A stretch of DNA of 64,000 bases from Actinomycetota bacterium (GTDB lineage Bacteria; Actinomycetota; Geothermincolia; Geothermincolales; RBG-13-55-18), in assembly GCA_014360655.1 (NCBI GenBank), contig JACIXC010000001.1:292715-356714 (forward strand). Reading direction: 5' to 3'. Shown here piece by piece: positions 3,376 through 63,035 of the stretch (within the stretch, counting starts at the first letter, position 1; each line of letters begins with the position of its first letter). Under the pieces are notes generated by a model. That model saw only the letters and a program-made list of their open reading frames with translations, had not been told where the DNA came from and searched no databases. A program made the position numbers and the translations under genes.

Positions 3376-5514
3376 TCAGAAGAGCTGGACCACCAGGGCG
3401 TACGGTTGTGGGGCCATGGGGACGTTCGCGGCGGCTATCTCCAGCGTGTAGGTTCCCGGTTTCCCGGACACGTCCAGGACCACCCTCTCCACGTTGTTCA
3501 GGGGATCGCGGGAGGTCCTTCCGTTCGGGTAAGAGAACCCTCCCTCGGGATCGATGACCCTGAGGTCGAGGTCGTTCACCAGGTGAAGCCTGGCCTGGGG
3601 AAGGGAGGGGTAATCCGACCAGGCCAGGGTCACCCTGAGTTGGCTTCCAGTTTTTACCTCAACGCGGAAAACGCGCGACTCTCCGCTGCGCATCCCCTCG
3701 CCGTCGTCGATGACCCTTAACCAGGTTTCCCGGTCCGTGGGCGCAGTGAAGTCGCACTTCCCCCATCCCTCCACCGGGTTGGGCGCGCGCGGCACCTCCA
3801 AGCCCGCCTCGCCGTACTGGCCGGGATACAGGTCCAGCGCACCGTTCACCAGGAAGGCCTTCACGAGGGCGGCGGACGGGGGCACGCCCCTCGCCGCCGT
3901 GAGCTCGGACCTCAAGGAGGCCACCCTTCCCGCCACCAGCGCGGCAGCCACGCCGGTGCCGTAGACCACGCACGTGCGGTCGCCGACGGGAAACGCAGCG
4001 GGACGACCCGCGGTTCCCGCCGCGGCGAAGGTGACCACTCCCGTCGCGGCGGCGACCAGGTCCGGCTTTATCCTGCCGTCCGTGGTGGGACCCCGCGAAC
4101 TGAAAGCGGCCATCCCCGGGGTCGATCCTTCCGCCCTGTCTTCCTTCAGGGGAGAGGCGGGGAAGCGCCCCGCAAAGGCGCCTTCCAACTCGCCGTAGGT
4201 GGGGACGCGGTAGCTCCCGGCGCGGCCCGCACCCTCGCAGCCCCCCACCGCAAGCACGTTCTTGGCCGCCGCTCCCCCCAGCAGGCTCCCCCTGTCCACC
4301 ACCCCGTCCCCGTCAGCATCGGTGCCCTCGTTCCCCGCCGGCTCCACTATAGTCATGTCCGCATGGTCCCAGGCAAATGCATCCCTCTGAAAGCCGTAGA
4401 TCCCGTAGGCACAAAGGGATTCCCTGCCCTCAGGCACGCTGCCGTCGAGGAGCGACCTCGCCCCCTCCAGGTATGCCCTCTCCAGCAGCGCGGTCATGGA
4501 GGCCGGCTGCGGCAGGGGGCCGATCCCGTATCCGGTGGCATAGACGGCGAGCTCGACGGGGTTCGGGCGCGCCGTGTCGCCTTCCGAGGACAGCGAGTCG
4601 CCCGCGAGCAGAACTCCCGCCAACGCCGTTCCGTGCCCGCTCACGTCCTCTCCCTCGTCTCCCCGGAAGGAGTAGACGCCGGTCACCCTGCTCCTGAGCG
4701 TCTGCGGCAGGCCGTCCGCGCCCGCGCTCGCCAGGCCGCTATCGGCGAGGGCGACCTTCTCCGGCCGAGTGGAGACGGCAGCGGCGTGATCGGGATGGAG
4801 ATCGCCCGCCGACGCGCCCCGCGGCGAGGCGACCGCGTTCCCGGCCAGGGTACCGCCGGTGTACAACTCCAGCCACTCCACGGCGCGCAGGGCGGCCACC
4901 TCGTCAAGCATGTGCGGCGCCACGCGCATGACCAGGATGCCGCACCACGCGTCCTTCTCCCCCTCCAGGACCTCCACGCCCATGTCGCGCAGCGCCCGCG
5001 CCGTCTCCTCCAGCAACGAACCGTCGTAGAGAAGGGCCGCCACCGTCGCCTCGCGTCCCTGCGAGAGCTGCAATTGCAGGGACGGGGACACCTTGAAATA
5101 GGGCTGGTATATTCCCGTCCAGGAAACGAATGGCAGGCCCTCCACCCCTGCGCGTTGCCGGTTGTCCACGGCCACCAGCAAGGCGTTGTAGGGGATGTAG
5201 CCGCAGACCTTCCCCCCCGCTTCCCGCACCGCCTCCAGCCACGATCCCTCGATGCTCCCCGCGCACTGCACGAGATAGAGACCGGACGACCGGTACCCGT
5301 CGACCCGGAAAGCGGGGGGGATGCGGCCCGCGTCATGGTCCCAGGGATAGATGGCGCCGTTCGTCAGGAGGACGGGGAAACCGGGCGACGGACCGGGCTC
5401 CTGCGCGCGTGCGGCGTCCCCCGAGCCGACCGCGCCGCACGCCGTGAGCAGGACCACCGCGAGGATCACGGCTTTCGCCCGGCGGCAAAGCCTCCCGTTA
5501 CGCGAGCACATCAT
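3376..5514 (-). CDS. Subtilisin-like (S8) peptidase homolog; lipoprotein; catalytic Ser apparently replaced by Gly
   Basis: Trimmed to the start MMCSRNG... The signal and lipobox read LLTACG. The S8 motifs for Asp (LADSGL), His (SGHGTALAG) and Asn (EPAGNEG) are present. At the Ser position the protein reads VVYGTGVAAALVAG instead of GTSMAAP. A FSSRGP motif precedes it. Confidence 0.75.
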   Translation of the reverse strand: MMCSRNGRLCRRAKAVILAVVLLTACGAVGSGDAARAQEPGPSPGFPVLLTNGAIYPWDHDAGRIPPAFRVDGYRSSGLYLVQCAGSIEGSWLEAVREAGGKVCGYIPYNALLVAVDNRQRAGVEGLPFVSWTGIYQPYFKVSPSLQLQLSQGREATVAALLYDGSLLEETARALRDMGVEVLEGEKDAWCGILVMRVAPHMLDEVAALRAVEWLELYTGGTLAGNAVASPRGASAGDLHPDHAAAVSTRPEKVALADSGLASAGADGLPQTLRSRVTGVYSFRGDEGEDVSGHGTALAGVLLAGDSLSSEGDTARPNPVELAVYATGYGIGPLPQPASMTALLERAYLEGARSLLDGSVPEGRESLCAYGIYGFQRDAFAWDHADMTIVEPAGNEGTDADGDGVVDRGSLLGGAAAKNVLAVGGCEGAGRAGSYRVPTYGELEGAFAGRFPASPLKEDRAEGSTPGMAAFSSRGPTTDGRIKPDLVAAATGVVTFAAAGTAGRPAAFPVGDRTCVVYGTGVAAALVAGRVASLRSELTAARGVPPSAALVKAFLVNGALDLYPGQYGEAGLEVPRAPNPVEGWGKCDFTAPTDRETWLRVIDDGEGMRSGESRVFRVEVKTGSQLRVTLAWSDYPSLPQARLHLVNDLDLRVIDPEGGFSYPNGRTSRDPLNNVERVVLDVSGKPGTYTLEIAAANVPMAPQPYALVVQLF

Positions 5515-8414: not shown

Positions 8415-11400
8415 TCAGGCCCTCAGGGCACCGCCGTCATAGAGGGGAAGCGCGTTCTCCCCATCGGGCTGAGGGATATGCACCGTAAAGACGGAACCCT
8501 TGCCGCGTTCGCTCCTCACCTCGATGCGCCCGTCGTGCGCTTCCACCAGTTTGTTTACGATGTAGAGTCCCAGCCCCATCCCCTTTATGGTGCCCCCTTC
8601 CTTTCCTTCCCCCTTGCGGAAAGGCTGAAATATGAGGTTCACGTTCTCCTCGCTGATGCCCTGTCCCTCGTCCCTCACCCCCAGGACGACCTCCCTCCCT
8701 TCCCTGTGGGCGAAGACCTCGATCCTGGAACCGGGAGGCGAATACTTGGCCGCGTTGTCCATGAGATTGAAGAGGACGATCTCCAGCTTGTCGCGGTCGG
8801 CAATCACGCTGGCGGCATCCTCCGCTATGTCCACCTCCACGACGTTATCTGAGGACCTGGCGCGAAGTTCCTCCACCAGGCTCCCCACCATGGTCACGAG
8901 GTCCACTTCCTCCAGGTCCACCGCCAGCTTGCCCGACTCCAGCCGCGAGACTTCCATCATGTTGATGACGCTGCGCCGCAGGCGGTCCGCGGCCTTGCGC
9001 AGCTTCTCTATGATCTCCCGGCTCTCCCTGCCGTCCAGCGTCTGCCCGTATTCGCGGAGCACCTCCGAAAAGCCCATGATGAGGGTGAGGGGGTGGCGCA
9101 ATTCGTGTGAGGCCATGCTGATAAGATCCGTCTTGGTCTTGAGGTTCTCTTCCTGGCGGCGGCACATGTCCTCCAGAAGACCGATGCGGGCCTGCAGGGC
9201 CTCCACGCGCAGGGGAACGGAAACCGCCATGCCGAGCAGGCCCGCCGCCCTCTCTATCAACTCCGTCTCCCGCTCCGCGAAGGCCCCTCCCCTGACGCTT
9301 CCTACCAGCAGGATACCCTTGATGCCCTCTCCGAGAAGGGGCACCGCGACGTAGGACCTTATCCCCCGCAGTGCCAGCCTGTCCTCTCCCGGCCCCCACA
9401 GGAAGGTGTTCAGGTTGTTCCTCACCAGTTTCCCGCTACGGGCCAGGGAAAGGGCGAGCGCTCCCTGGGGGTCGACGATGGCGGCGAACTCCTCCTCGTC
9501 CAGGGCTTCTCCCTTCATCCATCCCACGTGCCTTGCTCCCGTCTTTCCCTGCAAAGATGCCAGGAACAGGTCAACGGAGGCGACGCTCTCGAGCTCCCTG
9601 TAGAGACCCCCGCACGCTTCCTCGAGGGAAACGGCCGCGGAAAGACGCCTGGAGATGCGCAACAGTATCTTGCTCACCTGGAGATGGTCGCCGCTGCGCG
9701 CCCTTTCCTGCATGGACTCGAGCACGGAAACAGCCTGTCCCGCAAGGAAACAGGCCAGCCTCAGGTGGAATTCCCGGAAGGCCTCCCGGCCGTCGTTGCG
9801 CTCCAAGAGGATGGCGCCCAGAATGCCCTTTCTCCCCGCCAGGGGTACCGCTATGCGCCATCCCGAATCCCCTTCACCGCTCTCCCCAGCGGGGACGCCG
9901 TTACGCAGCGAACAATTCCCCTGTAGCGCCTCCACCATCTCCGGCCTCGTGAGGAGGGTCATGTCAAGGCTTTCCTCCCCCGTGCCGCAGTCCATCACGC
10001 CCTCGAATCTCTGCGCCTCACCGTCTATCACCGCGACCACCGCGCGGTCGCAGCCGAAGAGCTCCCTCCCTCCGCGTGCCAGTATACGCAGGGCCCTCCC
10101 CTGATCGTCGCACGCGGCCAGCTCTCCTTCCAGCTCCGCCAGCATCTCGAGCGAACGGCGGTACTCCTCCGCGCGCAGCCTCTCATCCACGCCTCCCGCA
10201 AGGTGCAGCATCAACCCCGCCAGGGAGGGAAGGGAGTCCAGCTCCGACTTGGTGAACCTGCTGTCGCCGGGCAGGTAAAAGCCGCAGAGAAGGAACCTCG
10301 TACCTGCGCGTGCCGGGACCAGGAGCAGGGTCAGGCCGCCGGCCGTCGCCAGCTCCGAGGCGGGCATCTCCTCCATGGCGGGGCTTTCGGGTTTCACCAC
10401 CGACATGCGCTGCAGGCCTATGGCAGCTTTTTCCAGCCCGCCCGTAGTGCGAAACAGCTTCTCGCCGCCGTATACGGCGTCGGCATACCAGAGAAACGAC
10501 CTCTCCTCCGTCCCCCGCCCGCCCATGTAAGCGAAACCCATGCGCGCGGACAGTTCCACGCATACCTTGCGCAGCCCCGACGAGAGGAACCCCTCGCTGT
10601 CCGCAGCTTCCTCGGCGATACGGGTCAGGTCCTCTATCATGGCGGGCAGATCCCACGCGGATGACCTCCGCGCCTCCCGCTGGGTGGAGACTCCCTCCTC
10701 CGCGAAGAGCTCGCCCAGACGGTGCGTGACCTGGACAAGCAGCTCCATGTCCTGCGGTCCCATGGCCGTGTACGTGCGCCCGAAGAGGGTGAGGATGCCC
10801 ACCAGCTGATCCTCGCGAAAGATCGGGGTGAGCAGGAAAGACTTCACCTGGTTGGCGTGGAAATACGGCTTGACGGCGGGGAAAAACTCGCTGATGCGGT
10901 TCGCGTCCAGGCTCAGCTCCCTGTCCCCCGAACGGCGCAGCGACTGCAGGAGCTCGGGCAGGTTCTCCTCGAAGAGATGCTCGATCAGGTCAGGCATGCC
11001 GCCCCATCCACGGGAGGCGATGAGCACGGCCATCTTCTCCTCCTCCGGACCGCGCAGGCGGTGGACGGTCCCCCCGTCCACGTTGAAAAGCTTGATGAGG
11101 AGATCGAGGCTGAGGGAGGCGGCCCGCACGCAGTCCGTCCTCCCTATCACGTAATCGGAAAGTATCCCCAGCTCAACTTCCGGGCCTTCCTTGGCCCCGG
11201 CGATCTCCCCCAGCCGGTCCTCCAGGGCGAAGAGCTCCACCATGCGTTCCAGCACGACGCTGACCGCCGCCGCCTTGAAAGACTGGGGGTCGGGGAGGGG
11301 GGCATGGGGGGCGAGGGCGACCAGGAGCACCGCCGTAAGGTAAGCGTGGCTGCGGATGGGGAAGAGGAGAACGTGCTCGACCGGCGTGACGGTGATCTCC

Positions 11401-51644: not shown

Positions 51645-52739
51645 TCAGGCGCTGGCCGTTTCCCGTCCTGCCTGGCCCACCGGCGTCACGGATATCTCCA
51701 GCTCGCCCTCCTCCGAGAAGCTCCATTCCAGGTGGGTGTCCACGTCATAGGTAAGCTCGTACAGCCCCTGCACCAGGCCGACCAGCATGAGGTGGAGGAA
51801 GGCGTTCTCTATGCGGAAATAGAGGCCGCTCTGGTTGGACCTCAGCTCGCGCAGGTTGCCCAGGCCGCGCATGGCCAGCTGGTCGCGCATGTCCAGCCTT
51901 CCCATGCCCTCGATGCTGTAGAACCCGGCCCGCACGAAACGGCGCTGGGCCTCGATGACCGACTCCGGGAAGATCTCCCCCAACTCGTTCTCCAGCTCGC
52001 CGAAAACGGCATCCACCTCCATCCCGGTGAGGATCATGCGCCTGCCCGTGGTGACGCCCGCGATGATGCCGCGCTCCGGGTACCAGCGGTAATGCGAAAG
52101 GGCCAGCGGGCCCCCGCAGCTCGCGCATCTCTCCAGCTCGATATCCCCGTCGCGGAGCGGGAAGTGGCGGAAGCGCAACCTGCCCTTGAGTTCCTGGGGA
52201 TGGTTGGCCACGAAACAAGTCAGCTCGTAGAGGTTCTCCGAGATCTGCTTGTATTCCGCGCCCAGCTCGCAGCCGAAGAGGATCTCGAAGGCGGCGGCCA
52301 TGTCCCCGCAGGCCAGGGGCACCGAGTAGGGTTCGGAGATGGTCTCCACGACGTAATCGTTCACGTCCTTCTCGAAACGGTAGTCGACCAGTTCGAATTT
52401 CCCGTAGCCGTCAAGCATCGCCGTCAGCCGCAGTCCGTCGTTCACCGGCCGCCAGTCGATCTCCCGCTTGCGCAGCAGCTCCTTGGTGACGTCGGGGATG
52501 AGGCTCTCCAGGTAAGAACGTACCGCACGGCGCTTGGCGGTGATCAGGGCATGCTCGATGGGCACACCGATCAACTCCTGGATGCCCCTGAAGAGGGGGT
52601 CGAGGTTCTCGCTCTCCACGAAGACCATGCGGTTACGACGGTCCCGGCTCTGCACGATGACGCCGTTGTCGAGCCAAGTGTGCTCGGAGGTGATGTGCCT
52701 GGGGACCCCGCACTCGGGGCAAAGATCGACCTGGTTCAT
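51645..52739 (-). CDS. Hypothetical protein with two CxxC zinc-ribbon-like motifs (possible V4R-like C-terminal domain)
   Basis: The motifs CPECG...H and CASCGG are present. The sequence is coding-like. The start is uncertain between 52739 and 52766. Confidence 0.45.
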   Translation of the reverse strand: MNQVDLCPECGVPRHITSEHTWLDNGVIVQSRDRRNRMVFVESENLDPLFRGIQELIGVPIEHALITAKRRAVRSYLESLIPDVTKELLRKREIDWRPVNDGLRLTAMLDGYGKFELVDYRFEKDVNDYVVETISEPYSVPLACGDMAAAFEILFGCELGAEYKQISENLYELTCFVANHPQELKGRLRFRHFPLRDGDIELERCASCGGPLALSHYRWYPERGIIAGVTTGRRMILTGMEVDAVFGELENELGEIFPESVIEAQRRFVRAGFYSIEGMGRLDMRDQLAMRGLGNLRELRSNQSGLYFRIENAFLHLMLVGLVQGLYELTYDVDTHLEWSFSEEGELEISVTPVGQAGRETASA

Positions 52740-53065
52740 GCCGTTGCCTGCCTTTCTCGTCATCCGTAACCAGATACAAGCCAGGTATTTGCTCCCAGAG
52801 CCCCGAGGCTCCGCAGCATACCATGCCACCAAGGTTTTTCTCGACCGACAGCGCTTTAAGGTAAAGACGTCCGGGCCGCGAATGTTCACCTGGAGTGAAC
52901 GCATTCCCGCGGGCGCACGGGGGCGACGGCGTGCACCCGCCCTCGACCACGGCTAGATGCGCGCCTGCCCGGGATTATCCCGCCCCCCCGCCGGCCCGGC
53001 CCGCCTTCTGCCCATCACCCCCATCCCGCTGCGCGGATCGCTTCCGCAAGGAATGCATGCGGCGA

Positions 53066-53629
53066 CTACAGGGAATATTCCTCCTTGAGGAACTGCACCC
53101 AGGGCTTGAAGGACTCGATCTCTTCCGGGGTCATCTCGTCGAGGAAGATGGTGTCCACCATGCCCACCAGCTCCGTGAGGCGGGTGGCCGCCTTGACGTA
53201 GCGCACGATGGTGGGCAGGTCGCCCTTGAGCTTGATCCTTCCCTGCATCATGCCCTTGACCGCGTCGAGCTCGCCGGTCATCACCTGCTTCCAGCGGTCG
53301 TAGGGGGCGGTGAGCACGTAGTCCCCGCTCTCGCCGACATCCCTGGGCACCAGGCGCACGGAGCGGCAGTCCCCGTGCCACAGGTCGAGCATGAGGTACA
53401 TGTCGTCATCCAGCCCCACCTGGGGTTCTGGAAGAATATGGATGACCACCGAGCCTTCCCAGCCCTTGGCCAGCTTGCGGTAGGTCTCGTCTCCCTGGAT
53501 GAGCTTTTCGTAGGCGCCGATCCACGCGGGGGTGCCCATTATGTAGGGCTTGTTCTCCACCTCGAGCAGGTCCTCCACCAGGGCGGCGAATGAATCCTCC
53601 CACTCCTTGGTCCCGTAAACGTACGGCAT
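53066..53629 (-). CDS. SCP2 sterol-binding domain protein
   Basis: The C-terminal motif MTGELDAVKGMMQGRIKLKGDL is SCP2-like. A strong AAAGGAGGAGG RBS precedes the ATG. Confidence 0.6.
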   Translation of the reverse strand: MPYVYGTKEWEDSFAALVEDLLEVENKPYIMGTPAWIGAYEKLIQGDETYRKLAKGWEGSVVIHILPEPQVGLDDDMYLMLDLWHGDCRSVRLVPRDVGESGDYVLTAPYDRWKQVMTGELDAVKGMMQGRIKLKGDLPTIVRYVKAATRLTELVGMVDTIFLDEMTPEEIESFKPWVQFLKEEYSL

Positions 53630-53843: not shown

Positions 53844-55133
53844 TCAATAGCAGGGATACCAGGGCGGCGGCTCGATCCCCGTGCCCAGGTCAACCCCGTG
53901 CCAACCCCTGGCATCCCTTTTCATGATGACCAGGGGGGCATCGATATCCTGGTTGGTGCAGAGGGCCACCCCGACCGCCTCGTTTCCCTTTATCAGCAGG
54001 CCGCTTATCTCGAACTCCAACCCCGCTGCGGCATTGGCCTTGGTGTAGGCCAGCATGGCCGCTTCCACCTCCGTAAGCCTTGACTCGTACCAGGCGGGCA
54101 GCTCCAGGTCGGTGCCCACGTCCACCCCGTGCCAACCCCTGGCATCCCTTTTCATGATGACCATGGGGGCATCGATATCCTGGTTGGTGCAGAGGGCTAA
54201 CCCGACCGCCTCGTTTCCCTTGATAAAGAGGTTGAATATCTCGAAATCCAACCCCGCTGCGGCATTGGCCTTGGTATAGGCCAGCATGGCCGCCTCCACC
54301 TCCGCCAGTTTCTCCGCTTCATCGTAGCCTTCGTCCTCGCTAACGCCGCTATCGCCGTTGTCCGTGGTCCCGTTGCGGTCCGGTTCATCCAGGCTCAGGC
54401 CTTCCAGCACATGCGGGTCGATCACCGACTCTCTAAGATAATCGCCAGACAGGTACCACTCCCCGTCCACCCTCACCAGCCGCACGGGCTCCACGTCGTC
54501 CTCTGAAGCCTCCTCGGTCACCACGTCTCCGTATTCGTCGGTATAGGTCATGGTGCCGTCCACGATGGTCACGGTTGCGGTGTCCCCGCGTATCTCGGTC
54601 TCCATCTCCCTGATCTCCACCTCCAGGTCCTCCGGGAAGTCCTGGAAGAAATAGTCCTCGAAGAAAGTCCGGTAGTTCTTTCCCAGCGCGTCCTCGAGTT
54701 CGGCGCGGAACGAAGGTTCGATGATCTCCAGGAACAGGTCCGCGTCCTGCGTCTCCATGGCGCGGTAGAATTTCCTCACCACCTCTTCGGGGCCGGAGGT
54801 GTCGCCGGTGCCGTTTCCCGCGAAGACCACGAATACCAGCACCAGGACTACGGCTATCGCCGCCAGCACCCCGATGCCGCCCATCACCCAGGGCAGGGGT
54901 GATTTTTTGGGGGTTGGGGCATAAGGAGTTGCCTGCGGGGCGGGCCCTTGCGGAAGGCCTGCGGGAGGAACCCCCGCCGGCGGGGAAGGCGGCACGTATA
55001 CCTGGTGATCGGGGGGGACAGGAGGCTGTCCCTCCTGTCCGGTGCCGGCAGATGCAGAGCTCACCGTTGCTCCACAGTAACCGCAGAACAGGCTATCGTC
55101 CGCTATCTCTTTTCCGCATTTTTCACAGAACAT
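53844..55133 (-). CDS. Zinc-ribbon membrane protein with internally duplicated C-terminal domain
   Basis: The start MFCEKCGKEI...CGYCG is preceded by GGAGGGAG. A Pro-rich linker is followed by one transmembrane segment. Two tandem copies of about 77 aa each are about 90 % identical (EVEAAMLAYTKANAAAGL.FEI...KRDARGWHGVD). Confidence 0.65.
   Translation of the reverse strand: MFCEKCGKEIADDSLFCGYCGATVSSASAGTGQEGQPPVPPDHQVYVPPSPPAGVPPAGLPQGPAPQATPYAPTPKKSPLPWVMGGIGVLAAIAVVLVLVFVVFAGNGTGDTSGPEEVVRKFYRAMETQDADLFLEIIEPSFRAELEDALGKNYRTFFEDYFFQDFPEDLEVEIREMETEIRGDTATVTIVDGTMTYTDEYGDVVTEEASEDDVEPVRLVRVDGEWYLSGDYLRESVIDPHVLEGLSLDEPDRNGTTDNGDSGVSEDEGYDEAEKLAEVEAAMLAYTKANAAAGLDFEIFNLFIKGNEAVGLALCTNQDIDAPMVIMKRDARGWHGVDVGTDLELPAWYESRLTEVEAAMLAYTKANAAAGLEFEISGLLIKGNEAVGVALCTNQDIDAPLVIMKRDARGWHGVDLGTGIEPPPWYPCY
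53884..54304. repeat. Tandem duplication of about 230 bp inside the zinc-ribbon membrane protein gene
   Basis: Two DNA copies are about 90 % identical over about 190 bp each. Confidence 0.8.
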
Positions 55134-55235
55134 CTTACGGCTCCCTCCATCACGCACGGCCCTCCTCGAGAATGCCCTGGGCCCACGCGCCTGGTCGGGT
55201 GGCAAGTCCGCGGGAGATGGGCATGGAGGCCCGCA

Positions 55236-56126
55236 TCAATATATCTTTCTCCCGCACCTACGGCAGAAACGCTCGCCGCTTCCCAGCCTGTTGCCGCACC
55301 CGGGGCAGAAAACCAGCGGCTCGGCCTCCCCCTGCACCGGCTTACCGCAAGCCCTACAGAATCTAACCCCCTCTTCCAGTTCGCTTCCGCAGGCGGCGCA
55401 GACGACCGGTGGCCTCCCTGCGGGTCTCCCGGCGTGTCTCCCACAGGCACTGCAGAAGCTTGCACCCTCCATAAGTTCCTTGCCGCAGCCGACGCAGAAA
55501 AGGCGAGCCGTGGGCGCCTGTCCTTCCGCCAGCTTCCCGGCTTCCGGTTCCTCTTCCTCGATCCCCGCAAGCTCTTTCATCTCAGCCAGAAAATCCCAGA
55601 AGGCGTCGTCCGCGGGTTGGCTGGCGGCCACGGCATCCAGCAAGCGATAGGCCTCGAGGTACTCGCCCTGCTCGGCATAAAGGCGGGCGGCGAGCAGGCA
55701 GACCAGGGGGTTCCCGGTGCCTTCGGGATCTTCGAGCACGACCTCGTATTGCTCAAGTGCGTCCTCTTTCCGGCCCTGCAATTGCAGGACCAGCGCATAA
55801 CTGGAGCGCAACGGAAGGCTGTCGGGATTGGCACCCAGGCCTATCTCGAGGTAATGCGAAGAATCTTCCATGTTGCCCTCCATGCCCGCCTTCATCCCCG
55901 CCATCCAGGTAAGGGTCTCGATGGTCCCGGCGTAGAGATCCTGGAAGTCAGGGTATTCCTCGAGGAAGACAAGGAGCTCTTCCAGGAGCAGATCTACGAG
56001 TACCTCTTCTCCTCCGAATACCTCTCGCTCCACCTCACGCCTTACGGGTACGGGCAGCAGTTCGGCCCCGTAGGCCTGCAGCGCCTGGTCCTCGAATCTG
56101 TAGAACGCGTACTCGCCCAAGTGCAT
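55236..56126 (-). CDS. TPR-like protein with three C-terminal zinc-ribbon motifs
   Basis: The three motifs are CVGCG...CSACG, CAACG...CRACG and CPGCG...CRRCG. The N-terminal region is helical and TPR-like. Confidence 0.6.
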   Translation of the reverse strand: MHLGEYAFYRFEDQALQAYGAELLPVPVRREVEREVFGGEEVLVDLLLEELLVFLEEYPDFQDLYAGTIETLTWMAGMKAGMEGNMEDSSHYLEIGLGANPDSLPLRSSYALVLQLQGRKEDALEQYEVVLEDPEGTGNPLVCLLAARLYAEQGEYLEAYRLLDAVAASQPADDAFWDFLAEMKELAGIEEEEPEAGKLAEGQAPTARLFCVGCGKELMEGASFCSACGRHAGRPAGRPPVVCAACGSELEEGVRFCRACGKPVQGEAEPLVFCPGCGNRLGSGERFCRRCGRKIY

Positions 56127-56143
56127 CTCTCCCCCGCGTCAAC

Positions 56144-58657
56144 TCAAGGCGTCAACCCCCTGTAGATATCGGCTACCTCCTTGGCCAGCTCCTCGGCAGA
56201 TGTCCCCCTGGACCTCAAGAAATCGTCCACCTCCACGGGTGAGGCGCCCCTGTTGATCATCCTGTTCATATCGTCGATGGTTCCCTCGACATCCGCGATC
56301 TTCCTGCTCACGGCGGCTGCTTTTCCCGGATTCGTCCGTTCGAGGTACTGGACACGCCCTCTTACCTGGTTGTTGAACGCCTTTACGATCTCGCGCTGTC
56401 CCAGGTAGCGTCGCTTCAGCGCCGATGTCATATCCCCTGACCTGGCTAATCTATCAGCCTCCGCGAAAGCCTCGTCAGCCTTGTATTGCATGGTCCTGCT
56501 CACCGTGTCCGTATGCGAGGTGCCCTTTCCGAGCTGCATATCCTGCCAGTCGTCCGGCGACATGCCGAAGGCCTCGGCGGAATGCCGGTCCACGGCAACG
56601 TTACGACAGTCGCGTCCCAACTGCGCCGGGGTGGTGCCCTCCGGGCTGCCCGCGGCACGGTAGAAGCTCTCGTCGTATATCTTCTGCACCTTGTCCGCGG
56701 GCACGTCGCGGATCTTGCCATCAGCTCCCTTGATGCGCACGGTAATGTCCTGGTCCATGGCTGCCTTGGCCTTGGCGCCCGGAACCTTGGGGTTGGTAGC
56801 CCTGAACACATCCACCTGATCCGGGCTTACCCCGAACTCACTCGCGATCTGCCGCCTTGCGTCCTCCATGGCCTTATCCTGAAGATCTCTCAGTTGTTTA
56901 TTGAAGCTCCTGATGACGCTCCTGTCCTTGGCGTTGAGCTTCTGGATGGCCAGGGGATCCTTCTGTATCTCCAGAATAGCCTCGGTCCGTATGCGCACGT
57001 CGCCGGACTTCATGGCTTTCTTGAACCTCTTGATCTTGGATTCCGCCTTCTGCAGATCGCTGGCCCATATCGTCTTCAACCTGCCCTTTTCGGCCTTGCC
57101 GAGTTTATCGAAGAGCCCTGGTTTCGCCTTTACCTTTCTGACCCTGGCAAGGTCGTCGAGCTTATCGTCCACGAGCCCTGCCGCCCTGGCGGCATCGTCC
57201 AACTTGTCTTTGCCGGCCGAGATCAGGGCCTTGCCCGCTTGCCTGCTCCCCCCTCCGAAGAGCCACCTGCCGAGCCCCGAGATACCCTCGAGCAGGCCGA
57301 TGGTGTTCAAGGTCGCCAGGGCCGAATAGGCGAAGCGGTCTGGCAGGGGCTTGTTGGGATCTATGGCGTTTTTCCACAGCTCCGTTCCCAGGATGGTCTT
57401 CAACGTGCCGAGAGGGTCCTGCAATACGGGAATGATGATATTCTCGGCGATGTACTTGGTGGCATCTTTCTTGGCTTCCTCCAGGTCCATGACGGGCTTA
57501 AACGGATCCTTCAGGCTGTTTGCGAAGTATTCCACCGCTGCCTCCGCCTGTTCCTTTTTCCACTTTTCGAAGTTCTCGTGCGTTTTTTTGATCTTGTCCA
57601 TCATGTCCTTGAGGTTTTCCACGTCGGTAACCCCATCCCATATCCATTTGGCCTTATCTGAGAGATAACCGGGGACGGTCTCGACATCGTCCCCGATGTT
57701 CCTTATGGTCTGGACGAGCACGTTCTCCGGCGCTTGCTGGTATGGATCCACCTGGGAGGAAAAGGGCTCCGCGGTACCGCCGGCGATTCCCGCCGGAAAC
57801 GGCTCCATGCCCGGGGGAGCCGCGGGTGGCGATGCAGGCTTTCCGGGAGGGGCCAGCGGCGTGACGGGCACGGGCGGCAGCGCGAGGAGCGAATTAAGAA
57901 ATCCTGTCACCGCCGCGATGATGCCGGCTATCACCGTGCCTACAAGCCATTTCCACCAGCTCCCGGGCCCCGGTATCTTGCCGGCTTCACCCTCCCTCTC
58001 GCTCTCTCCACCAGGCGTCGAGACGACATCCCCACCGGGACCCACTTCCACCCACCCCGACTGGTGTTCATAAGAAGCCAGCGTCTCCTCGAGGGTAGCC
58101 TCCATCTCGGAGACCGCCCTTTCCATCCCCGAACCGTATTTATCAGGCGGGATCTCGACCTCCACGCTGTCGCTCTTGGTGTTGCCGGTACCGGTCTCTT
58201 CCAGTGGCTGATCGGTCCCACCCACCCACGACGTCGACTCCAGGAAGGCTACGTCATTATATAAGATCTTGTCTGCAGCCGATTCATCCAGGGGTACGAT
58301 CATGCCGTCCTTGACGACTGCCTTGGTGGATGTGGTGTAGATGACGTACAGGTAATATCTCACGAATACCGTTCCGTCGTCGTGTTTCACTATCTCGGTG
58401 GTCTTTACCGTCTTTACTATCTTGAACGGGGGATCGCTCATTATTTCTCCCGTCATAAAACATGCCATATCCCCCTCCCCGTTTCTTATTTTCTCGATGA
58501 AATCCTCAGCCTGTTCTTCCGTCGGGGGCTTGATATTGTCCGCGAAACAGGGGCTGGAGCAGGAGAGCATGATGGCTCCGGTCAAAGAGATCAAGACGGC
58601 CAGGGCGAGCGGCCAGGGTGGCCGCCATGTTCCGCCCAACCGTCCCGGTATCGCCAT
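56144..58657 (-). CDS. Large (838 aa) signal-peptide/membrane-anchored protein of unknown function
   Basis: The N-terminal signal reads LALAVLISLTGAIMLSCSS. An internal hydrophobic helix reads WWKWLVGTVIAGIIAAVTGFLNSLL. A Pro-rich linker follows. The long helical C-terminal half has no recognisable family. Confidence 0.55.
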   Translation of the reverse strand: MAIPGRLGGTWRPPWPLALAVLISLTGAIMLSCSSPCFADNIKPPTEEQAEDFIEKIRNGEGDMACFMTGEIMSDPPFKIVKTVKTTEIVKHDDGTVFVRYYLYVIYTTSTKAVVKDGMIVPLDESAADKILYNDVAFLESTSWVGGTDQPLEETGTGNTKSDSVEVEIPPDKYGSGMERAVSEMEATLEETLASYEHQSGWVEVGPGGDVVSTPGGESEREGEAGKIPGPGSWWKWLVGTVIAGIIAAVTGFLNSLLALPPVPVTPLAPPGKPASPPAAPPGMEPFPAGIAGGTAEPFSSQVDPYQQAPENVLVQTIRNIGDDVETVPGYLSDKAKWIWDGVTDVENLKDMMDKIKKTHENFEKWKKEQAEAAVEYFANSLKDPFKPVMDLEEAKKDATKYIAENIIIPVLQDPLGTLKTILGTELWKNAIDPNKPLPDRFAYSALATLNTIGLLEGISGLGRWLFGGGSRQAGKALISAGKDKLDDAARAAGLVDDKLDDLARVRKVKAKPGLFDKLGKAEKGRLKTIWASDLQKAESKIKRFKKAMKSGDVRIRTEAILEIQKDPLAIQKLNAKDRSVIRSFNKQLRDLQDKAMEDARRQIASEFGVSPDQVDVFRATNPKVPGAKAKAAMDQDITVRIKGADGKIRDVPADKVQKIYDESFYRAAGSPEGTTPAQLGRDCRNVAVDRHSAEAFGMSPDDWQDMQLGKGTSHTDTVSRTMQYKADEAFAEADRLARSGDMTSALKRRYLGQREIVKAFNNQVRGRVQYLERTNPGKAAAVSRKIADVEGTIDDMNRMINRGASPVEVDDFLRSRGTSAEELAKEVADIYRGLTP

Positions 58658-58665
58658 GCCCTTCA

Positions 58666-59151
58666 TTACGCGACCGCCTTGCTGAAGATGGCCGAGTAGG
58701 CTATCCAGATGCCGGAGAAGACAAAAGACCCTGCCATGGGGATGACCATGAGGCGCATCTGCTGACCGGATGAGCGCATCAGCTCGGCCCCCACCGCCGC
58801 TCCCGAGGTCATGATGGTCGCCTGGATGAAGGCGGTGGCCGCGTTCCAGCCGAAGGCGAGGTCCGCCAGGAGGGCGAGCGCGGTGAAGGGTATGGCGATG
58901 AGGTAGCCCCGCGCCACGGCGTCAAGGCCTCCCACATACCCCGGTCCCCGGCGTAGGGGGGGATGGACCGCCAGCACCAGGCCGGCGAGGCCGGCCAGGC
59001 AGGCCGCTATGACGAGCAGGCCCAGGATCGTGTAGAGGGCTACCTGGCCCGCGCCCACAACGACGTACCTGCCGTTGAGCCATGCCAGGACGGTGAAGCA
59101 GGCCAGGATGAGCAGGCCGCAAACGATCCTCTCCGTCAGTGCTCTGTCCAC
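58666..59151 (-). CDS. Integral membrane protein (about 5 TM)
   Basis: The GTG start is preceded by TAGGAGG. The protein is hydrophobic throughout. Confidence 0.5.
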   Translation of the reverse strand: MDRALTERIVCGLLILACFTVLAWLNGRYVVVGAGQVALYTILGLLVIAACLAGLAGLVLAVHPPLRRGPGYVGGLDAVARGYLIAIPFTALALLADLAFGWNAATAFIQATIMTSGAAVGAELMRSSGQQMRLMVIPMAGSFVFSGIWIAYSAIFSKAVA

Positions 59152-59164
59152 GGCGTTTCGCCTC

Positions 59165-59674
59165 CTATATCCCCAGCAAGGCCCAACCGCAGAGGATAAG
59201 CGCCCCGCAGATGGTGGAGAGGGTCAGGGAGGCTATCACCTTCTCCCCGGTCATCTCCCGGCAAATGGCAATGATAGGGTACAGCGCCCAAAGTGCCCCG
59301 GTGATCCCGAAGGCCACGGCGGTGTTCCAGCCCGCGGTCAGGTTTGCGATCAACCCCACCAAGCAGAAGATGAGGGTAGGGGTGTAGGCGAGGCAGAAAG
59401 CCCGCACCGTCCACCCCAGGGAGCGGTCGTTTCCGAAGAGGCGCGAAGCGGCCCAGGCCAGCGCCGCCACCAGGGCTACCCCTGCGGTGCCCATGGCGGT
59501 TCCCAGGAAGGTGAAGCCCACCGCGGCCCCGGTGCTTGCGGTGCCCACGCGGTGCATGTCCAAGCCGGTCTGCAGGAAGAAGAGGGTGAAAGAAATCCCG
59601 GATATGGCGAGGCAGAAGGGCCAGGGGATGCTCTCCATGGCTCCCTTCAGCACCCGGGTGGGGTTCAAGATCAT
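59165..59674 (-). CDS. Integral membrane protein (Yip1-like topology); start uncertain
   Basis: Five hydrophobic segments. Several in-frame starts exist (59824 TTG, 59674, 59634) and none has a strong RBS. Confidence 0.4.
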   Translation of the reverse strand: MILNPTRVLKGAMESIPWPFCLAISGISFTLFFLQTGLDMHRVGTASTGAAVGFTFLGTAMGTAGVALVAALAWAASRLFGNDRSLGWTVRAFCLAYTPTLIFCLVGLIANLTAGWNTAVAFGITGALWALYPIIAICREMTGEKVIASLTLSTICGALILCGWALLGI

Positions 59675-59862
59675 GGAAAGGGCTGTACTCAGTGACGAAG
59701 ATGCTCTTGTGCCCGCAACCTCCACTCCCCGCTCCTTGATGTCGTTGCCCCCAGATGTTCTGTGGCATCCCCGAAACATGGCACGGTATATCCATATCAT
59801 CTCAATTCTTAGGGGATATTTCAACAGGACACGCTACCGTTGGCAGCGCGTAAGATAGATCT

Positions 59863-60273
59863 GTGGGCACAAATTCCTTGAAGCTATCTCTAGTGATAGA
59901 CGGGCCCCTACTCGAGCCGCTCAATATCGACGCCGACACGCCCCTGGAAATAACCACCAACGGAGAGGCGTTGATCATCACGCCCGTGCGCGATAAGAAG
60001 CGCCGTCAGGACTTCGAGGCAGCCCTGGAGAAAGCCGATCGCCAGTACGGCAGGATGCTCAAGAACCTGGCGGGCTGGATTGCCGGGCTTGTATCCCTTA
60101 CCCTGGCCCGGGTGATCGAGATACACCGGGACCAGATGTGTCGCTGCGGCGGCAGCCCCGGCACACGAGACCTCGATCTTCTTAAACCCGCCCTGACCAC
60201 GCCCCGGGCTGGCATGGGAGGGCAATATATCAAGGGATCCGGCTTAAGAAAAAGGCCACGAGGGGCCCGTTGA
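59863..60273 (+). pseudogene. Decayed TA locus: AbrB/SpoVT-type antitoxin-like N-terminus fused in-frame to the first 45 aa of a Doc/Fic-type toxin, then truncated
   Basis: Residues 20-75 resemble AbrB-family antitoxins (LEITTNGEALIITPV...ALEKADRQYGRMLKNLA). They continue without a stop into LTLARVIEIHRDQMCRCGGSPGTRDLDLLKPALTTPRAGMGGQY, which matches the Doc N-terminal pattern (iH..li..fGG..GiRD.glLesAl.rP). The Doc core HxFxDGNKR is absent. The ORF ends 2 bp before direct repeat 1. Confidence 0.5.
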
Positions 60274-60275
60274 TC

Positions 60276-60308
60276 GGTGGGCGTTAAGGGATCTGGAAGA
60301 CCTTTCCC
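60276..60308 (+). repeat. 33-bp direct repeat, copy 1 (GGTGGGCGTTAAGGGATCTGGAAGACCTTTCCC)
   Basis: Matches 61075-61107 at 30 of 33 positions. Together the copies flank the RHH/RelE cassette. Confidence 0.85.
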
Positions 60309-60465
60309 TGTTTACTGTCCTGCTTGAGATGGGTATTACGCCGCCGGCAAAGGAGGATTCACATGGTGCGTCACCTCGATGGGATAGGATGATATCTATA
60401 GGCATGGTAAAATACATGTGATACAATAACATACATAGAATACTTACTGGGATCGGAGGTACAAA

Positions 60466-60684
60466 GTGAGTAAGGCGATCTCGATCAGGCTGGATGAACA
60501 GGTGTTGAAAGAACTGGAGGACCTGTCTAGGGCAACGGAGCGCTCCCGTACCTTTCTCATCAATGAGGCCATAAAGACTTACATTGCGGAATACGGCGAT
60601 TACCGCGTGGCGCTCGACCGTCTCCTGGATAAGGACGATGAGCTGATCAGCGGCTCGGAGCTGAGGAGAAGGCTTGGGCTTTAA
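60466..60684 (+). CDS. RHH-type antitoxin (RelB/DinJ/ParD/CopG family)
   Basis: The GTG start is preceded by GGAGGT. It begins with an RHH beta-strand (MSKAISIRLDEQVLKELEDLSRATERSRTFLINEAIKTYI). Its 3' end overlaps the toxin gene. Confidence 0.75.
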   Translation: MSKAISIRLDEQVLKELEDLSRATERSRTFLINEAIKTYIAEYGDYRVALDRLLDKDDELISGSELRRRLGL

Positions 60685-60928
60685 GGTAGTATACAAAGCC
60701 TCGGTCGAGAAGGATCTCAAGAAGATAGATAAAGCCGAGGCGAAAAGGATCTTGAACGGAATAGAAGGCGACTTGGCGAAGGATCCCGATAAGGGAGCTG
60801 CCTTAAGCGGAACATTCCAGGGGTTATACAGATACAGGATCGGCGATCACAGGGTCATATACGCCAAGACGATTGATGGGGTATTGGTGTTGCGCATCGG
60901 CCACAGAAAAGACATCTATCGCGTCTAG
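60674..60928 (+). CDS. RelE/ParE-family toxin
   Basis: 84 aa. The sequence fits the RelE/ParE pattern (...KDLKKI...GLYRYRIGDHRVIYAKTIDGVLVLRIGHRKDIYR). A TTG start overlaps the antitoxin stop. Confidence 0.75.
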   Translation: MGFKVVYKASVEKDLKKIDKAEAKRILNGIEGDLAKDPDKGAALSGTFQGLYRYRIGDHRVIYAKTIDGVLVLRIGHRKDIYRV

Positions 60929-61074
60929 GATGAAGCCGGTGATCAAGCCGGAATGAGGAGTCGCCAGACGGGTATGCGAGGCAAGTCGGAAACTGTAGAA
61001 GCCGTTAATTGGCGGACTGGCAGATACGCCAGAGATATTAGGAAGCCGGGCACAGAGCCCGGCTTCTATTGCTT

Positions 61075-61107
61075 TGGTGGGCGTTAAGGGACTTGGAAGA
61101 CCTATCC
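61075..61107 (+). repeat. 33-bp direct repeat, copy 2 (GGTGGGCGTTAAGGGACTTGGAAGACCTATCCC)
   Basis: See copy 1. It ends 37 bp before the stop of the HEPN-like gene. Confidence 0.85.
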
Positions 61108-61143
61108 CCACTAGTAGTCCTCGATGAGGTGGTATGAACGGCT

Positions 61144-62550
61144 TCAGCTTTCCTGCACCAAGACCCCCCTGAGCTTGGTCTTATGCAACTTGCTTAGCGG
61201 CCCCTCAATGATTTTTATCTTCTCCTTTTCAATCATCGATGCATCAATGAGGTCTATAAGGTCCTTCTTTTGGAGGTTTAGAAATGCAGCCACTAAGATG
61301 GAAATTCGAAGAATGTTGGCCAGACTTCGCATATAAAGCCGTATATCGCCCCGCCGATTTTCAAACCTCCTTCTTTCTTTTTCATCCAATAGCTCCCCAT
61401 GAACATATCTACTTCTGATATCGTATGCATCATTTATCTCGTCCTGTATTTCATTTGCATTAAATCCCAACATGGAAAACAGCTTTGCGACTCTGCTCTT
61501 CAGGCGATACTTCAGCTCCATGTTCTCTTGCAGGAAAAGGCTCTCCATGCCCATGACAAGGTTGGCAATTCTCGCCTCCTCTCTGTTCCCCCTTAACAGA
61601 TAATCACAATAGGACGAATAAGCAATTGACAAATGTATTGACGTCTTATCGGAGAAGCTGAGTTTCTCCCAAAGCCGCATCTTGCGACACTCATTCCAAA
61701 ATTTACGGAGTATGCGGAAATCGCTTTCTTGTAAAACGTATTCTTCATATACGGATATGAGCGATATTGGTCCTATTTGTTTACCCGGATAGTATTTGGC
61801 AACAGAGTCCGTGTACTTATGATCACGAATTCTTTGAACACTACCTACCCGGAATAGCCTTAAAACCGTTTCAGCTAATTGGATGTCTTCCTCTAAGCCG
61901 ACGGTATCATAATAGTCGCCCTTAATCTCCAGAATCATTGTTGGATTCATAAAATCATCGAATTGCAAGTGTTCGTAGGCAGCGACTTTCTTCTCTAGGT
62001 CCTTTGCCGTTAACTGCCTTAGAATGAAGGTGGTTCCATCTATAATGAATTTCTTCCTAACTGTTAGAATCGAAACACCCAATAACTCTGATATCGAATG
62101 ATGTTTCCTGGGCTTTTTGTTCAAGTCTTTGATACATGAGCCAACCAATTTGGCCACGTATCTTTTGTCCAACCTCCCTTTCTTAAGAACGTCCTCCGAT
62201 AAAAAGTGCATGAAATTCCATAACAACCATTGCTCTACATTGTCGTTATCTGGAAATAAGCCTCTCAGGGTGCGTACGGAATCTTTGTAGGCGCTCTGTT
62301 TTATGTACTCCTTTACGAAACGATTCGCTTCGCCCGCGAATGATTCCCTACAATATTCTTGATAGTTGATGCCATCGCATTTTAGTTTGCCATCATCATT
62401 CATTGGCTGTGGCGGCTTTCTGGATATATACGATTGCTTCGATTTATTTAATCTCCCCTCCCGGATTAGGCATTCCAATTCATGGGCGATATTTCCTGCA
62501 AGTTCCATCAGGCAATTTGTTGCGGCTTCTTCTCGGGATAGCCGTGCCAT
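61144..62550 (-). CDS. 468-aa protein with C-terminal HEPN-like domain (Rx4HG motif), Abi/ApeA-like; low-GC
   Basis: The C-terminal 150 aa show the HEPN pattern (...MESLFL...E.KYRLKSRVAKLFSML...IQDEINDAYDIRSRYVHGEL..., where R-S-R-Y-V-H is Rx4H). The N-terminal 300 aa match no family I recognise. GC is about 40 % versus about 66 % for the flanks. It lies 12 nt downstream of the GGCT-like gene. Confidence 0.6.
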   Translation of the reverse strand: MARLSREEAATNCLMELAGNIAHELECLIREGRLNKSKQSYISRKPPQPMNDDGKLKCDGINYQEYCRESFAGEANRFVKEYIKQSAYKDSVRTLRGLFPDNDNVEQWLLWNFMHFLSEDVLKKGRLDKRYVAKLVGSCIKDLNKKPRKHHSISELLGVSILTVRKKFIIDGTTFILRQLTAKDLEKKVAAYEHLQFDDFMNPTMILEIKGDYYDTVGLEEDIQLAETVLRLFRVGSVQRIRDHKYTDSVAKYYPGKQIGPISLISVYEEYVLQESDFRILRKFWNECRKMRLWEKLSFSDKTSIHLSIAYSSYCDYLLRGNREEARIANLVMGMESLFLQENMELKYRLKSRVAKLFSMLGFNANEIQDEINDAYDIRSRYVHGELLDEKERRRFENRRGDIRLYMRSLANILRISILVAAFLNLQKKDLIDLIDASMIEKEKIKIIEGPLSKLHKTKLRGVLVQES

Positions 62551-62564
62551 AACCCATCAACCTT

Positions 62565-63035
62565 TCATTGTGGTGCCCGCAACCTTTTCAACATCTCAAG
62601 ATAATCTTCGGGCAGTTCCCAATGCGTTGCCCCGGATATAATATGGCGTAAATAGTCTTCAGCAGGAGTATGCTCTTTGTCAGATTTATTTGCAGCAACA
62701 TAGATGAATGCTCCTAACGGTCGATCTTCATCTCCATTCACAAGCACGCTGGTGCAACAACGCTCGTAGGCGTTATTCTCACCCTTGCCATAATAGCCCT
62801 CATAGGTATCGAGTCTCTTCAATTCCTCTTTCGAGATGTCATATACAACCCCCCAAACACCCGGGCTGGCATCATCCTCTACGACATCGGCAACCCAGCT
62901 TCTGCGCTTTTCTGAATATCTCGTGAATGCGAGCCGGAAGCGCGGGAGAAGGGCCAGGCATCTGAATTGGTAGGATGGGCAACGCTCCTTCATCTGCTTG
63001 GGGTCCAAGTTGGAGCCGTAGGCGAAGTACAGCAT
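62565..63035 (-). CDS. Gamma-glutamyl cyclotransferase-like (GGCT/AIG2-like) protein
   Basis: The N-terminus MLYFAYGSNL is the hallmark YGSNL motif of GGCT/AIG2 folds. A strong AAAGGAGGTG RBS precedes the ATG. The catalytic-Glu candidate cannot be confidently assigned by eye; checking it is the first test. Confidence 0.65.
   Translation of the reverse strand: MLYFAYGSNLDPKQMKERCPSYQFRCLALLPRFRLAFTRYSEKRRSWVADVVEDDASPGVWGVVYDISKEELKRLDTYEGYYGKGENNAYERCCTSVLVNGDEDRPLGAFIYVAANKSDKEHTPAEDYLRHIISGATHWELPEDYLEMLKRLRAPQ

Follow-up and report, generated by a model that had tools for sequence, protein, structure and literature searches.

A Yip1-, zinc-ribbon- and DxD…K-domain gene cassette from an Actinomycetota bacterium

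In eukaryotes, proteins of the Yip1 family are described as heterodimers that serve in membrane trafficking (review PMC6682643). In bacteria, GltJ is a membrane protein in which a zinc ribbon (ZnR) acts as a protein-protein switch and a GYF domain binds a proline-rich sequence; its authors propose transmembrane signalling by ZnR/GYF proteins that are encoded together with receptor-like transmembrane (TM) proteins (PMC11135422). Here we describe a gene cassette that is best compared with these systems and a few others. It lies at positions 53844-59824 of a 64,000-nucleotide (nt) stretch of contig JACIXC010000001.1 (assembly GCA_014360655.1, Actinomycetota bacterium), which is called the window below; coordinates are those of the window. 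Its five consecutive open reading frames (ORFs), all on the minus strand, encode a Yip1-like protein, a membrane protein of 161 amino acids (aa), an 840-aa bitopic protein (the big protein), a TPR/zinc-ribbon protein (gene 4) and a zinc-ribbon TM protein (gene 5, ZnR-TM).

Like the eukaryotic Yip1-Yif1 (YIPF) heterodimers, the cassette brings together a putative pair of paralogous small polytopic Yip1-domain proteins, the co-occurrence of which is strict among the loci examined. It differs in being bacterial and in having a partner that is bitopic and carries a novel domain on the cytoplasmic side; no gene for a Rab/Ypt-type GTPase was found in any cassette examined. With the GltJ-type ZnR/GYF modules of the Myxococcus Agl-Glt focal adhesions it has in common cytoplasmic zinc ribbons on membrane proteins, proline-rich linkers, operons with receptor-like TM proteins and an N-terminal GYF_2 domain, which is fused to some of the orthologous Yip1 proteins in other genomes. 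In contrast to the Glt system, it has no genes for MglA/MglB, AglZ or the gliding machinery, and its zinc ribbons are multiplied on a separate TPR protein, whereas Glt systems lack the DxD…K domain described below. The window proteins have zinc ribbons but no GYF domain in a Pfam scan, so that none of them joins the two on one membrane protein through a flexible linker, as GltJ does.

The YknW-YknXYZ system of Bacillus subtilis also has a Yip1-family protein in an operon with presumed membrane-protein partners, but the cassette contains neither an ABC transporter nor a membrane-fusion protein. Single-pass receptors (Ser/Thr kinases, membrane-bound cyclases, anti-sigma factors) resemble the big protein in their succession of signal or anchor, variable ectodomain, TM helix, linker and conserved cytoplasmic domain, in the invariant acidic and basic residues of that domain, and in the presence of multiple paralogues per genome; the C-terminal domain of the big protein, however, matches none of those families by sequence or fold. 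Anchored proteins of the Rv0361/DUF4878/SnoaL (NTF2-like) type are similar to the gene 5 product, in which a TM segment is followed by a sub-threshold NTF2-like domain; here the differences are scores below the cutoffs, an N-terminal zinc ribbon and two extra 77-aa modules. No described system matches the gene set. Two of its five proteins belong to no family; the Yip1, TPR, zinc-ribbon and NTF2-like parts are familiar building blocks.

The conserved C-terminal domain of the big protein

An exhaustive HMMER family-profile search of 1.84 billion representative proteins retrieved 223 clusters related to the big protein (120 at E≤1e-10), and the part common to them is its last ~300 residues. D638, D640 and K729 are invariant in 89 of 89 diverse aligned domains, and G650, E698 and D693 are conserved in 94%, 92% and 90% of this alignment, respectively. 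An AlphaFold2 model of this C-domain, based on a 36-sequence alignment, was obtained with a mean predicted local distance difference test (pLDDT) of 92.7 and a predicted TM-score (pTM) of 0.89. It consists of long helices around a small sheet, with the elements in the order helix, strand, RTPG loop, DxD strand, [D/E]-V-P strand, helix, strand, the TDxD motif standing at the beginning of the second strand.

Comparison of the C-domain model with PDB and BFVD by Foldseek gave nothing at E<0.3, Pfam, NCBIfam, PADLOC and PHROGs scans of 36 diverse C-domains assigned them to no family, and with only 3 matches, a word-indexed search for homologues of the 36-sequence alignment was uninformative. In the word-indexed set of 5.8 billion proteins the 840-aa protein has only six relatives, one of which is the protein itself, annotated as hypothetical in a metagenome-assembled genome (MAG) of an 'Actinobacteria bacterium'. 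A preliminary description of the locus had recognised no family in the big protein, and the Pfam, NCBIfam, PADLOC and PHROG scans agree with it. Of the structure and profile comparisons that it recommended, the first yielded the confident C-domain model, whereas PDB profile searches gave only weak, probably compositional matches (E 1.3e-3 and 0.08) between the C-terminal helices and the helical bundles of talin and vinculin. The full-length model (pLDDT 68) was used for secondary structure only because of its low confidence outside the C-domain; by Foldseek it had nothing in PDB at E<0.3. Judged from the model and the searches, the C-domain appears to be a protein family and fold without detected sequence or structural relative. 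It deserves a family entry, even if its function should prove modest, because of the 223 clusters, the three invariant residues and the confident model without structural neighbour.

Nucleotidyltransferase (NTase), PD-(D/E)xK, HAD and Toprim readings of the DxD site were considered, and none found support. The criteria were a core-sheet match with D…(D/E)xK for a nuclease, or hG[GS]x9-13DxD with a third carboxylate for an NTase. The order of the elements is readable as PD-(D/E)xK-like or as minimal-NTase-like, neither of which is backed by any search, and a (D/E)xK lysine on the third strand is absent from the model. The C-terminal domain of a polymorphic toxin was rejected because of topology and neighbours: carriers of the C-domain have a signal, an ectodomain and a TM helix that place it in the cytoplasm, no Rhs, LXG or other toxin-carrier Pfam domain occurs in the family proteins, and the genes downstream of C-domain genes encode zinc-ribbon proteins, not small immunity proteins.

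Members of the family are 350-2,100 aa long and usually consist of a signal or anchor, a variable ectodomain, a TM helix, a variable linker, a helical region and the C-domain; no Pfam domain was found in any of the large ones. Among the variants, P0055 and P0121 have an N-terminal zinc ribbon and a polytopic membrane region, and P0054 carries an RDD domain. The polytopic N-termini of P0049, P0055, P0121 and P0128 were also considered as a fused Yip1 or 161-aa protein, for which there was no significant hidden Markov model (HMM) match. In P0125 (L023 7001-10858) the DxD…K domain is N-terminal in an ankyrin-repeat protein, in a locus that is rich in Ank and TPR genes; this context is different because no zinc-ribbon gene adjoins. 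In P0033, P0036 and P0045 (L019 6001-12219), giants of 1,500-2,100 aa, a G[YF][DN]xx pentapeptide (GYDKDGYNREGF...) is repeated tens of times in the cytoplasmic linker that separates the TM helix from the C-domain.

In the N-terminal half of the big protein the best-conserved stretch is KIPGPGSWWxWLxGTV(I/M/V)AG, and the IPGP-TM signature is retained in distant giant Firmicute homologues. Hydropathy and AlphaFold2 (AF2) also recover the N-terminal signal or anchor, the one internal TM helix, the Pro-rich linker and the helical C-terminal half that had been described before (Table 1). The protein had further been called extremely charged; it is charged (K+R+D+E = 28%), but not to an extreme degree.

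Gene order and partner proteins

Six genes had been counted in the cluster by the preliminary description, but there are five, which is also the number in its own list. Apart from this count its anatomy was accurate, although it missed the Yip1 paralogy, the discrete C-terminal domain of ~300 aa and the invariant DxD…K site. The ORFs lie where it had placed them (59165-59824, 58666-59151, 56144-58666, 55236-56126 and 53844-55205, all minus strand), with the short gaps, and the last gene about 100 bp further on, that it had reported. The Yip1 gene and the 161-aa gene are separated by 13 nt; the stop of the latter and the start of the 840-aa gene share 1 nt (TAATG, an interval of -1 nt, or a gap of ~8 nt with Met4 as start); 17 nt follow before the TPR/zinc-ribbon gene, and 102 nt between this gene and the real ATG of the fifth gene (55133, MFCEKCGK...). 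A Shine-Dalgarno-like sequence precedes each proposed start of the five genes, and together with the TAATG overlap and the 13-17-nt gaps this makes translational coupling likely. A weak promoter-like site is found ~70 nt upstream of the likely Yip1 start, and a Rfam scan of 52.8-60.6 kb revealed no RNA element. The operon-like organisation that had been proposed is thus supported by overlapping stop and start codons, 13-17-nt gaps and a recurring gene order, and the five genes probably form one co-transcribed operon. According to the family scans, none of the cassette proteins belongs to a well-characterised housekeeping family.

Co-conservation of the genes had been set beforehand as a test that could refute the cluster, and the same order was found in more than 13 loci and across phyla. 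The order Yip1, 161-aa, big and zinc-ribbon gene (followed in part by ZnR-TM) occurs in >13 independent Actinomycetota loci. It is present in the window, L001, L003, L004, L005-7, L009-L012 and L017, while L008, L014, L015 and L018 are truncated contigs that are consistent with it; a HMM-based synteny script detected it in every locus that was long enough. The flanking genes vary between the contigs that carry relatives while the cassette order is constant. A scan of GTDB species genomes added ten further loci, all from Actinomycetota MAGs, including one of Candidatus Geothermincolia. The five-gene order is likewise found in three Firmicute-type loci, L022, L019 (from a metagenome) and L025 (from the complete genome of Dehalobacter sp. 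DCM, CP092282.1, around LPY66_13295), where Yip1 is detected at E ~1e-61 and its paralogue at E ~2e-21; the big protein has 2,064-2,077 aa in L019 and L025, and only a 364-aa C-terminal fragment of it was called in L022. Overall, the system was found in Actinomycetota, Firmicutes and Chloroflexota, and several genomes have two or three paralogous cassettes.

Individual loci have features of their own. In loci of the Firmicute type (L019 15989-18219; L025 20171-20570) LemA comes after the cassette, in L019 together with DUF2207, and an extra polytopic protein of ~416 aa in L019 and an extra 461-aa protein in L025 are possible additional components. In L016 (7352-8291, MAG84_tar_biofilm) Yip1 and its paralogue are intact and the big gene consists of two short fragments, possibly a pseudogene or an assembly problem. 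In L001, the closest homologous locus, GYD-domain genes (PF08734, 94 aa each) stand on either side of the cassette (3493-3777 and 9311-9595). L026 (NZ_CP154629.1 1690974-1710008), from the cultured Acetoanaerobium noterae, has a gene for a C-domain protein of 1,576 aa, ahead of which two zinc-ribbon proteins are encoded; this replicon of 2.63 Mb is filed as a plasmid in PLSDB, has four annotated features and is probably chromosomal.

The first protein matches Pfam Yip1 (PF04893) above the gathering score (32 bits, cutoff 28.6; profile positions 19-171 of 173), as do its homologues, and hydropathy reveals five hydrophobic segments in 186 aa. Its start is probably GTG 59725, since AAGGAG is located 6 nt before this codon and the resulting length of 186 aa is equal to that of homologues. 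Close relatives, of 50-85% identity, form 214 clusters in Actinomycetota and Firmicutes; the Firmicutes carriers are Dehalobacter, Dehalobacterium, Gelria, Syntrophomonadaceae and Desulfotomaculaceae. The 161-aa protein, the gene for which is always located between the Yip1 gene and the big gene, has no match in Pfam or NCBIfam. Because HMMs of the two membrane proteins cross-hit, they were subjected to profile-profile comparison: hhalign aligned the 161-aa family with Yip1 over 83 columns (probability 92.8%, E 3.9e-7), and the motif GWN(T/A)A.AF is common to both. Two proteins of the Yip1 family are therefore encoded side by side in the cassette.

The TPR and triple zinc ribbon previously assigned to the gene 4 protein correspond to matches to TPR_19 (31.5 bits, cutoff 25; residues 133-182), Zn_Ribbon_1 (PF13240; 59.7 bits, 1.9e-16, three stretches) and DZR (PF12773; 47 bits), the latter two above threshold. 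Gene 4 proteins occur in two forms, type A with TPR and ribbons and type B with a different domain of ~370 aa and ribbons, and in all type-A loci, as well as in the fused variants L020 and L024, the big gene is directly followed by an orthologue of gene 4. In the gene 5 protein, earlier described as a zinc-ribbon membrane protein with a duplicated domain, there are indeed one zinc ribbon (Zn_Ribbon_1, 31.4 bits, above threshold), one TM segment and a repeated 77-aa module. Its ectodomain has sub-threshold matches to Rv0361_Cterm (NF051431; 7.2e-7, 29.5 bits, cutoff 37) and SnoaL_2 (2.3e-4, 22.1 bits, cutoff 27), which amount to a resemblance only. Homologues of ZnR-TM occupy the same position in L003, L004, L005-7, L014, L017 and L019. 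The L004 orthologue also has two copies of the module, with a faint DUF4878 match, that of L006 has a different C-terminal module, and the partner in L021 (Anaerolineaceae) carries a Peripla_BP_6 ligand-binding ectodomain.

Table 1. Features of the cassette (window coordinates)
Feature	Position	Strand	Basis
Promoter-like site (TTGAAA, 17-nt spacer, TG-GATGAT)	59796..59824	-	consensus scan; weak
Yip1-family polytopic membrane protein, 186 aa from GTG 59725; ORF open to TTG 59824	59165..59725	-	Pfam Yip1
161-aa membrane protein, divergent Yip1 paralogue, 4-5 TM	58666..59151	-	hhalign
840-aa bitopic membrane protein; ATG overlaps preceding stop by one base	56144..58666	-	ORF, hydropathy, alignment
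Signal peptide or N-terminal anchor, residues 16-42 (...SSPCFA)	58541..58621	-	hydropathy; kept in homologues
Variable alpha/beta ectodomain, residues 43-231	57974..58540	-	low conservation; AF2 pLDDT 60-85 in parts
Invariant juxtamembrane KIPGPGSWW and TM helix, residues 231-262 (TM 238-262)	57881..57976	-	alignment
Pro-rich cytoplasmic linker with conserved APPGKP, residues 263-315	57722..57880	-	invariant P/G columns
Helical middle region, residues 316-535	57062..57721	-	AF2 helices, low confidence
Conserved cytoplasmic domain, residues ~536-838	56153..57061	-	HMMER clusters, AF2
Codons of invariant D638-x-D640, start of second beta strand	56747..56755	-	89/89 alignment
Codon of invariant K729	56480..56482	-	89/89 alignment
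Cytoplasmic adaptor, 296 aa: acidic N-terminal TPR and three zinc ribbons (type A)	55236..56126	-	Pfam
Gene 5 protein, 429 aa: zinc ribbon, Pro-rich linker, TM, NTF2-like ectodomain, two 77-aa modules	53844..55133	-	Pfam, hydropathy
Recent tandem duplication, 231-nt period	53857..54304	-	copies 53857-54073 / 54088-54304, 89% nucleotide identity

A possible receptor-like complex and competing explanations

Several observations connect the C-domain with the zinc ribbons. A zinc-ribbon gene directly adjoins the C-domain gene in ~21 of 23 non-redundant loci, including L021 and L026, and in P0055 and P0121, which have a zinc ribbon on the same polypeptide, a TPR+DZR gene (homologous to gene 4) comes immediately after. 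The cytoplasmic half of the big protein falls into two subtypes: A is paired only with a type-A partner and B only with type B, even where both cassettes are in one MAG (CAYHAT01, JABLXL01). This strict pairing suggests that the big protein and its zinc-ribbon partner recognise each other directly. As to topology, the positive-inside N-terminus with its signal-like segment, the cytoplasmic nature of zinc ribbons and the layout of P0055, which has a zinc ribbon and an apparently even number of TM segments before the C-domain, place the C-domain, the TPR-triple-ribbon protein and the ribbon of gene 5 in the cytoplasm. The ectodomains of the big protein and of ZnR-TM are accordingly predicted to face the wall.

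The interpretation that we tentatively prefer, on the basis of the sequences, is that the cassette encodes a receptor-like transmembrane signalling or scaffolding complex of a kind not yet described. Receptor-like features are the variable ectodomains, the Peripla_BP_6 partner, the duplicated ectodomain module and the paralogous cassettes, two or three of which per genome are more typical of receptor families. The five products would form an inner-membrane complex that links the cell exterior with the cytoplasm. In it, the Yip1-like pair would act within the membrane as a platform, comparable to the Yip1-Yif1 heterodimer of eukaryotes, and might grip the invariant TM helix and juxtamembrane segment of the big protein, while in some genomes the N-terminal GYF domain on Yip1 may bind the Pro-rich linker through its PPG motif. 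Of 154 family members, 15 have PPG following the TM helix, where ~1 is expected by chance. The variable ectodomains of the big protein and ZnR-TM might sense or bind a cue in the envelope or from outside. The DxD…K domain would then be the output, most likely as a metal-dependent enzyme or binding site, and would act on, or be regulated by, the zinc-ribbon/TPR adaptor, for which the ribbon number of one to four suggests multivalent binding. What the sequences establish is the anatomy, the conservation, the fusions and the co-variation; the contacts, the catalytic nature of the DxD…K site and the signalling role we infer.

A number of points weigh against the receptor-like complex. The contacts of the Yip1 pair with the TM helix, of the C-domain with the zinc ribbons and of GYF with PPG are predicted from synteny, fusion and co-variation, and the co-variation of subtypes could reflect co-inheritance of whole cassettes, not contact. 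No window protein has a GYF domain, and the closest homologue (P0002), like most family members, has no PPG motif. Kinase, cyclase, GGDEF, HTH and sigma/anti-sigma domains are absent from the cassette proteins, the C-domain family has no characterised member, and the DxD…K site could be structural or could bind metal without catalysis. A more far-reaching proposal, which we consider unlikely, is that the DxD…K domain represents an enzyme fold not described before and the output of an unrecognised class of transmembrane signalling in monoderm anaerobes, which would modify, or be switched by, the zinc-ribbon adaptors, with a Yip1/Yif1-like heterodimer holding the receptor TM helix.

Alternatively, the Yip1-like pair and the bitopic protein might constitute an envelope-biogenesis or trafficking scaffold that organises insertion, export or anchoring of a surface component in monoderm bacteria, with the long helical cytoplasmic part as a tether; we regard this as unlikely. 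In B. subtilis the Yip1-like YknW assists the YknXYZ exporter, which would favour such a role. Many neighbours also have an envelope function, e.g., dTDP-rhamnose genes, GT2 and polysaccharide deacetylase in L001, Wzz and Poly_export in L020, GT1 and PIG-L in L022, MurJ and RodZ in L021, and LemA and DUF2207 in L019 and L025, but these genes change by locus, are often on the opposite strand and lie outside the conserved cassette, which itself has no transporter, ATPase, glycosyltransferase or secretion component. A tether would be in keeping with the repetitive cytoplasmic linkers of >1000 aa in the giant Firmicute versions and with the talin/vinculin profile matches of the C-terminal helices; the latter, however, are weak and likely to reflect composition, and charged residues of which three never vary are better suited to an active or ligand site than to a passive tether. 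A further argument for a scaffold is the trafficking role described for eukaryotic Yip1-family proteins (PMC6682643).

More doubtful still is an anti-phage or conflict system composed of a membrane sensor, a DxD…K effector (e.g., a nuclease or nucleotide-modifying enzyme) and zinc-ribbon regulators. The zinc-ribbon proteins had been regarded as of a kind often associated with envelope stress or conflict, a suggestion that found no support: PADLOC was negative, only the window and L004 adjoin toxin-antitoxin or Abi genes, and several genomes have paralogous cassettes. The window cassette does adjoin an island of low GC, a ribbon-helix-helix (RHH)-ParE pair and a 468-aa protein that belongs to no family, and the flanks of L004 contain AbiEi, DUF3696, HATPase_c_3 and a pair of DUF433 and DUF5615; most loci, however, are found amid rhamnose/glycosyltransferase, polysaccharide-export, MurJ/RodZ or catabolic genes. 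A PADLOC-DB 2.0 scan gave nothing at E<0.01 for the five proteins and those encoded next to them, and nothing consistent among 36 C-domains; PHROGs yielded generic zinc ribbons only, there was no match in phage records, and the one match in a plasmid collection was to a 2.6-Mb replicon that is probably chromosomal. The patchy spread over Actinomycetota, Firmicutes and Chloroflexota and the variable ectodomains, one of them recently duplicated, would suit a defence function. Against it, two or three divergent cassettes are present per genome, and Yip1 is ~50% identical between phyla, which implies strong purifying selection. Finally, the alpha-beta-beta-beta-alpha-beta order around DxD is on paper compatible with a PD-(D/E)xK-like core, but Foldseek found no nuclease or NTase similarity and the third strand has no (D/E)xK lysine.

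It is highly improbable that the genes are neighbours by chance, or through shared ancestry of related MAGs, and form no functional unit: most of the close loci do come from related Actinomycetota MAGs, but this explanation is largely refuted by an order that is the same in Actinomycetota and Firmicutes despite wholly different flanks, by fusions of ZnR with the C-domain and of GYF with Yip1, by the strict pairing of partner subtypes and by overlapping stop and start codons.

Genomic surroundings and significance

Beyond the cassette, GC content falls from ~0.62 to 0.49-0.55 past 60 kb, and the region 59863-63035, which adjoins the promoter region of the cassette, has the appearance of an acquired island. 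It contains genes for an RHH antitoxin (60466-60684), a ParE toxin (60674-60928), the 468-aa protein (61144-62550), which has no Pfam or PADLOC match, and a GGACT/AIG2-like protein (62565-63035), as well as an ORF on the plus strand (59863-60273) without Pfam match. On the other side, a 419-aa ORF (51645-52904, minus strand) with two CxxC pairs, no family match and no counterpart seen in other loci shares the strand of the cassette and lies downstream of the SCP2 gene at 53066-53629.

Versions of the system are present in cultured organisms, Dehalobacter sp. DCM and Acetoanaerobium noterae, which makes it accessible to genetics and biochemistry. If the receptor-like reading is true, the cassette would represent a new multi-component membrane system in Actinomycetota, Firmicutes and Chloroflexota that is centred on a new fold. 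The more far-reaching proposal, if true, would place bacterial Yip1 proteins, and the very common 'orphan' zinc ribbons at the N-termini of Gram-positive membrane proteins, in a functional context for the first time. The receptor-like reading would also provide testable partners for Yip1-family membrane proteins, for N-terminal zinc ribbons of membrane proteins and for GYF_2 domains, all of which are abundant in bacteria but functionally blank.

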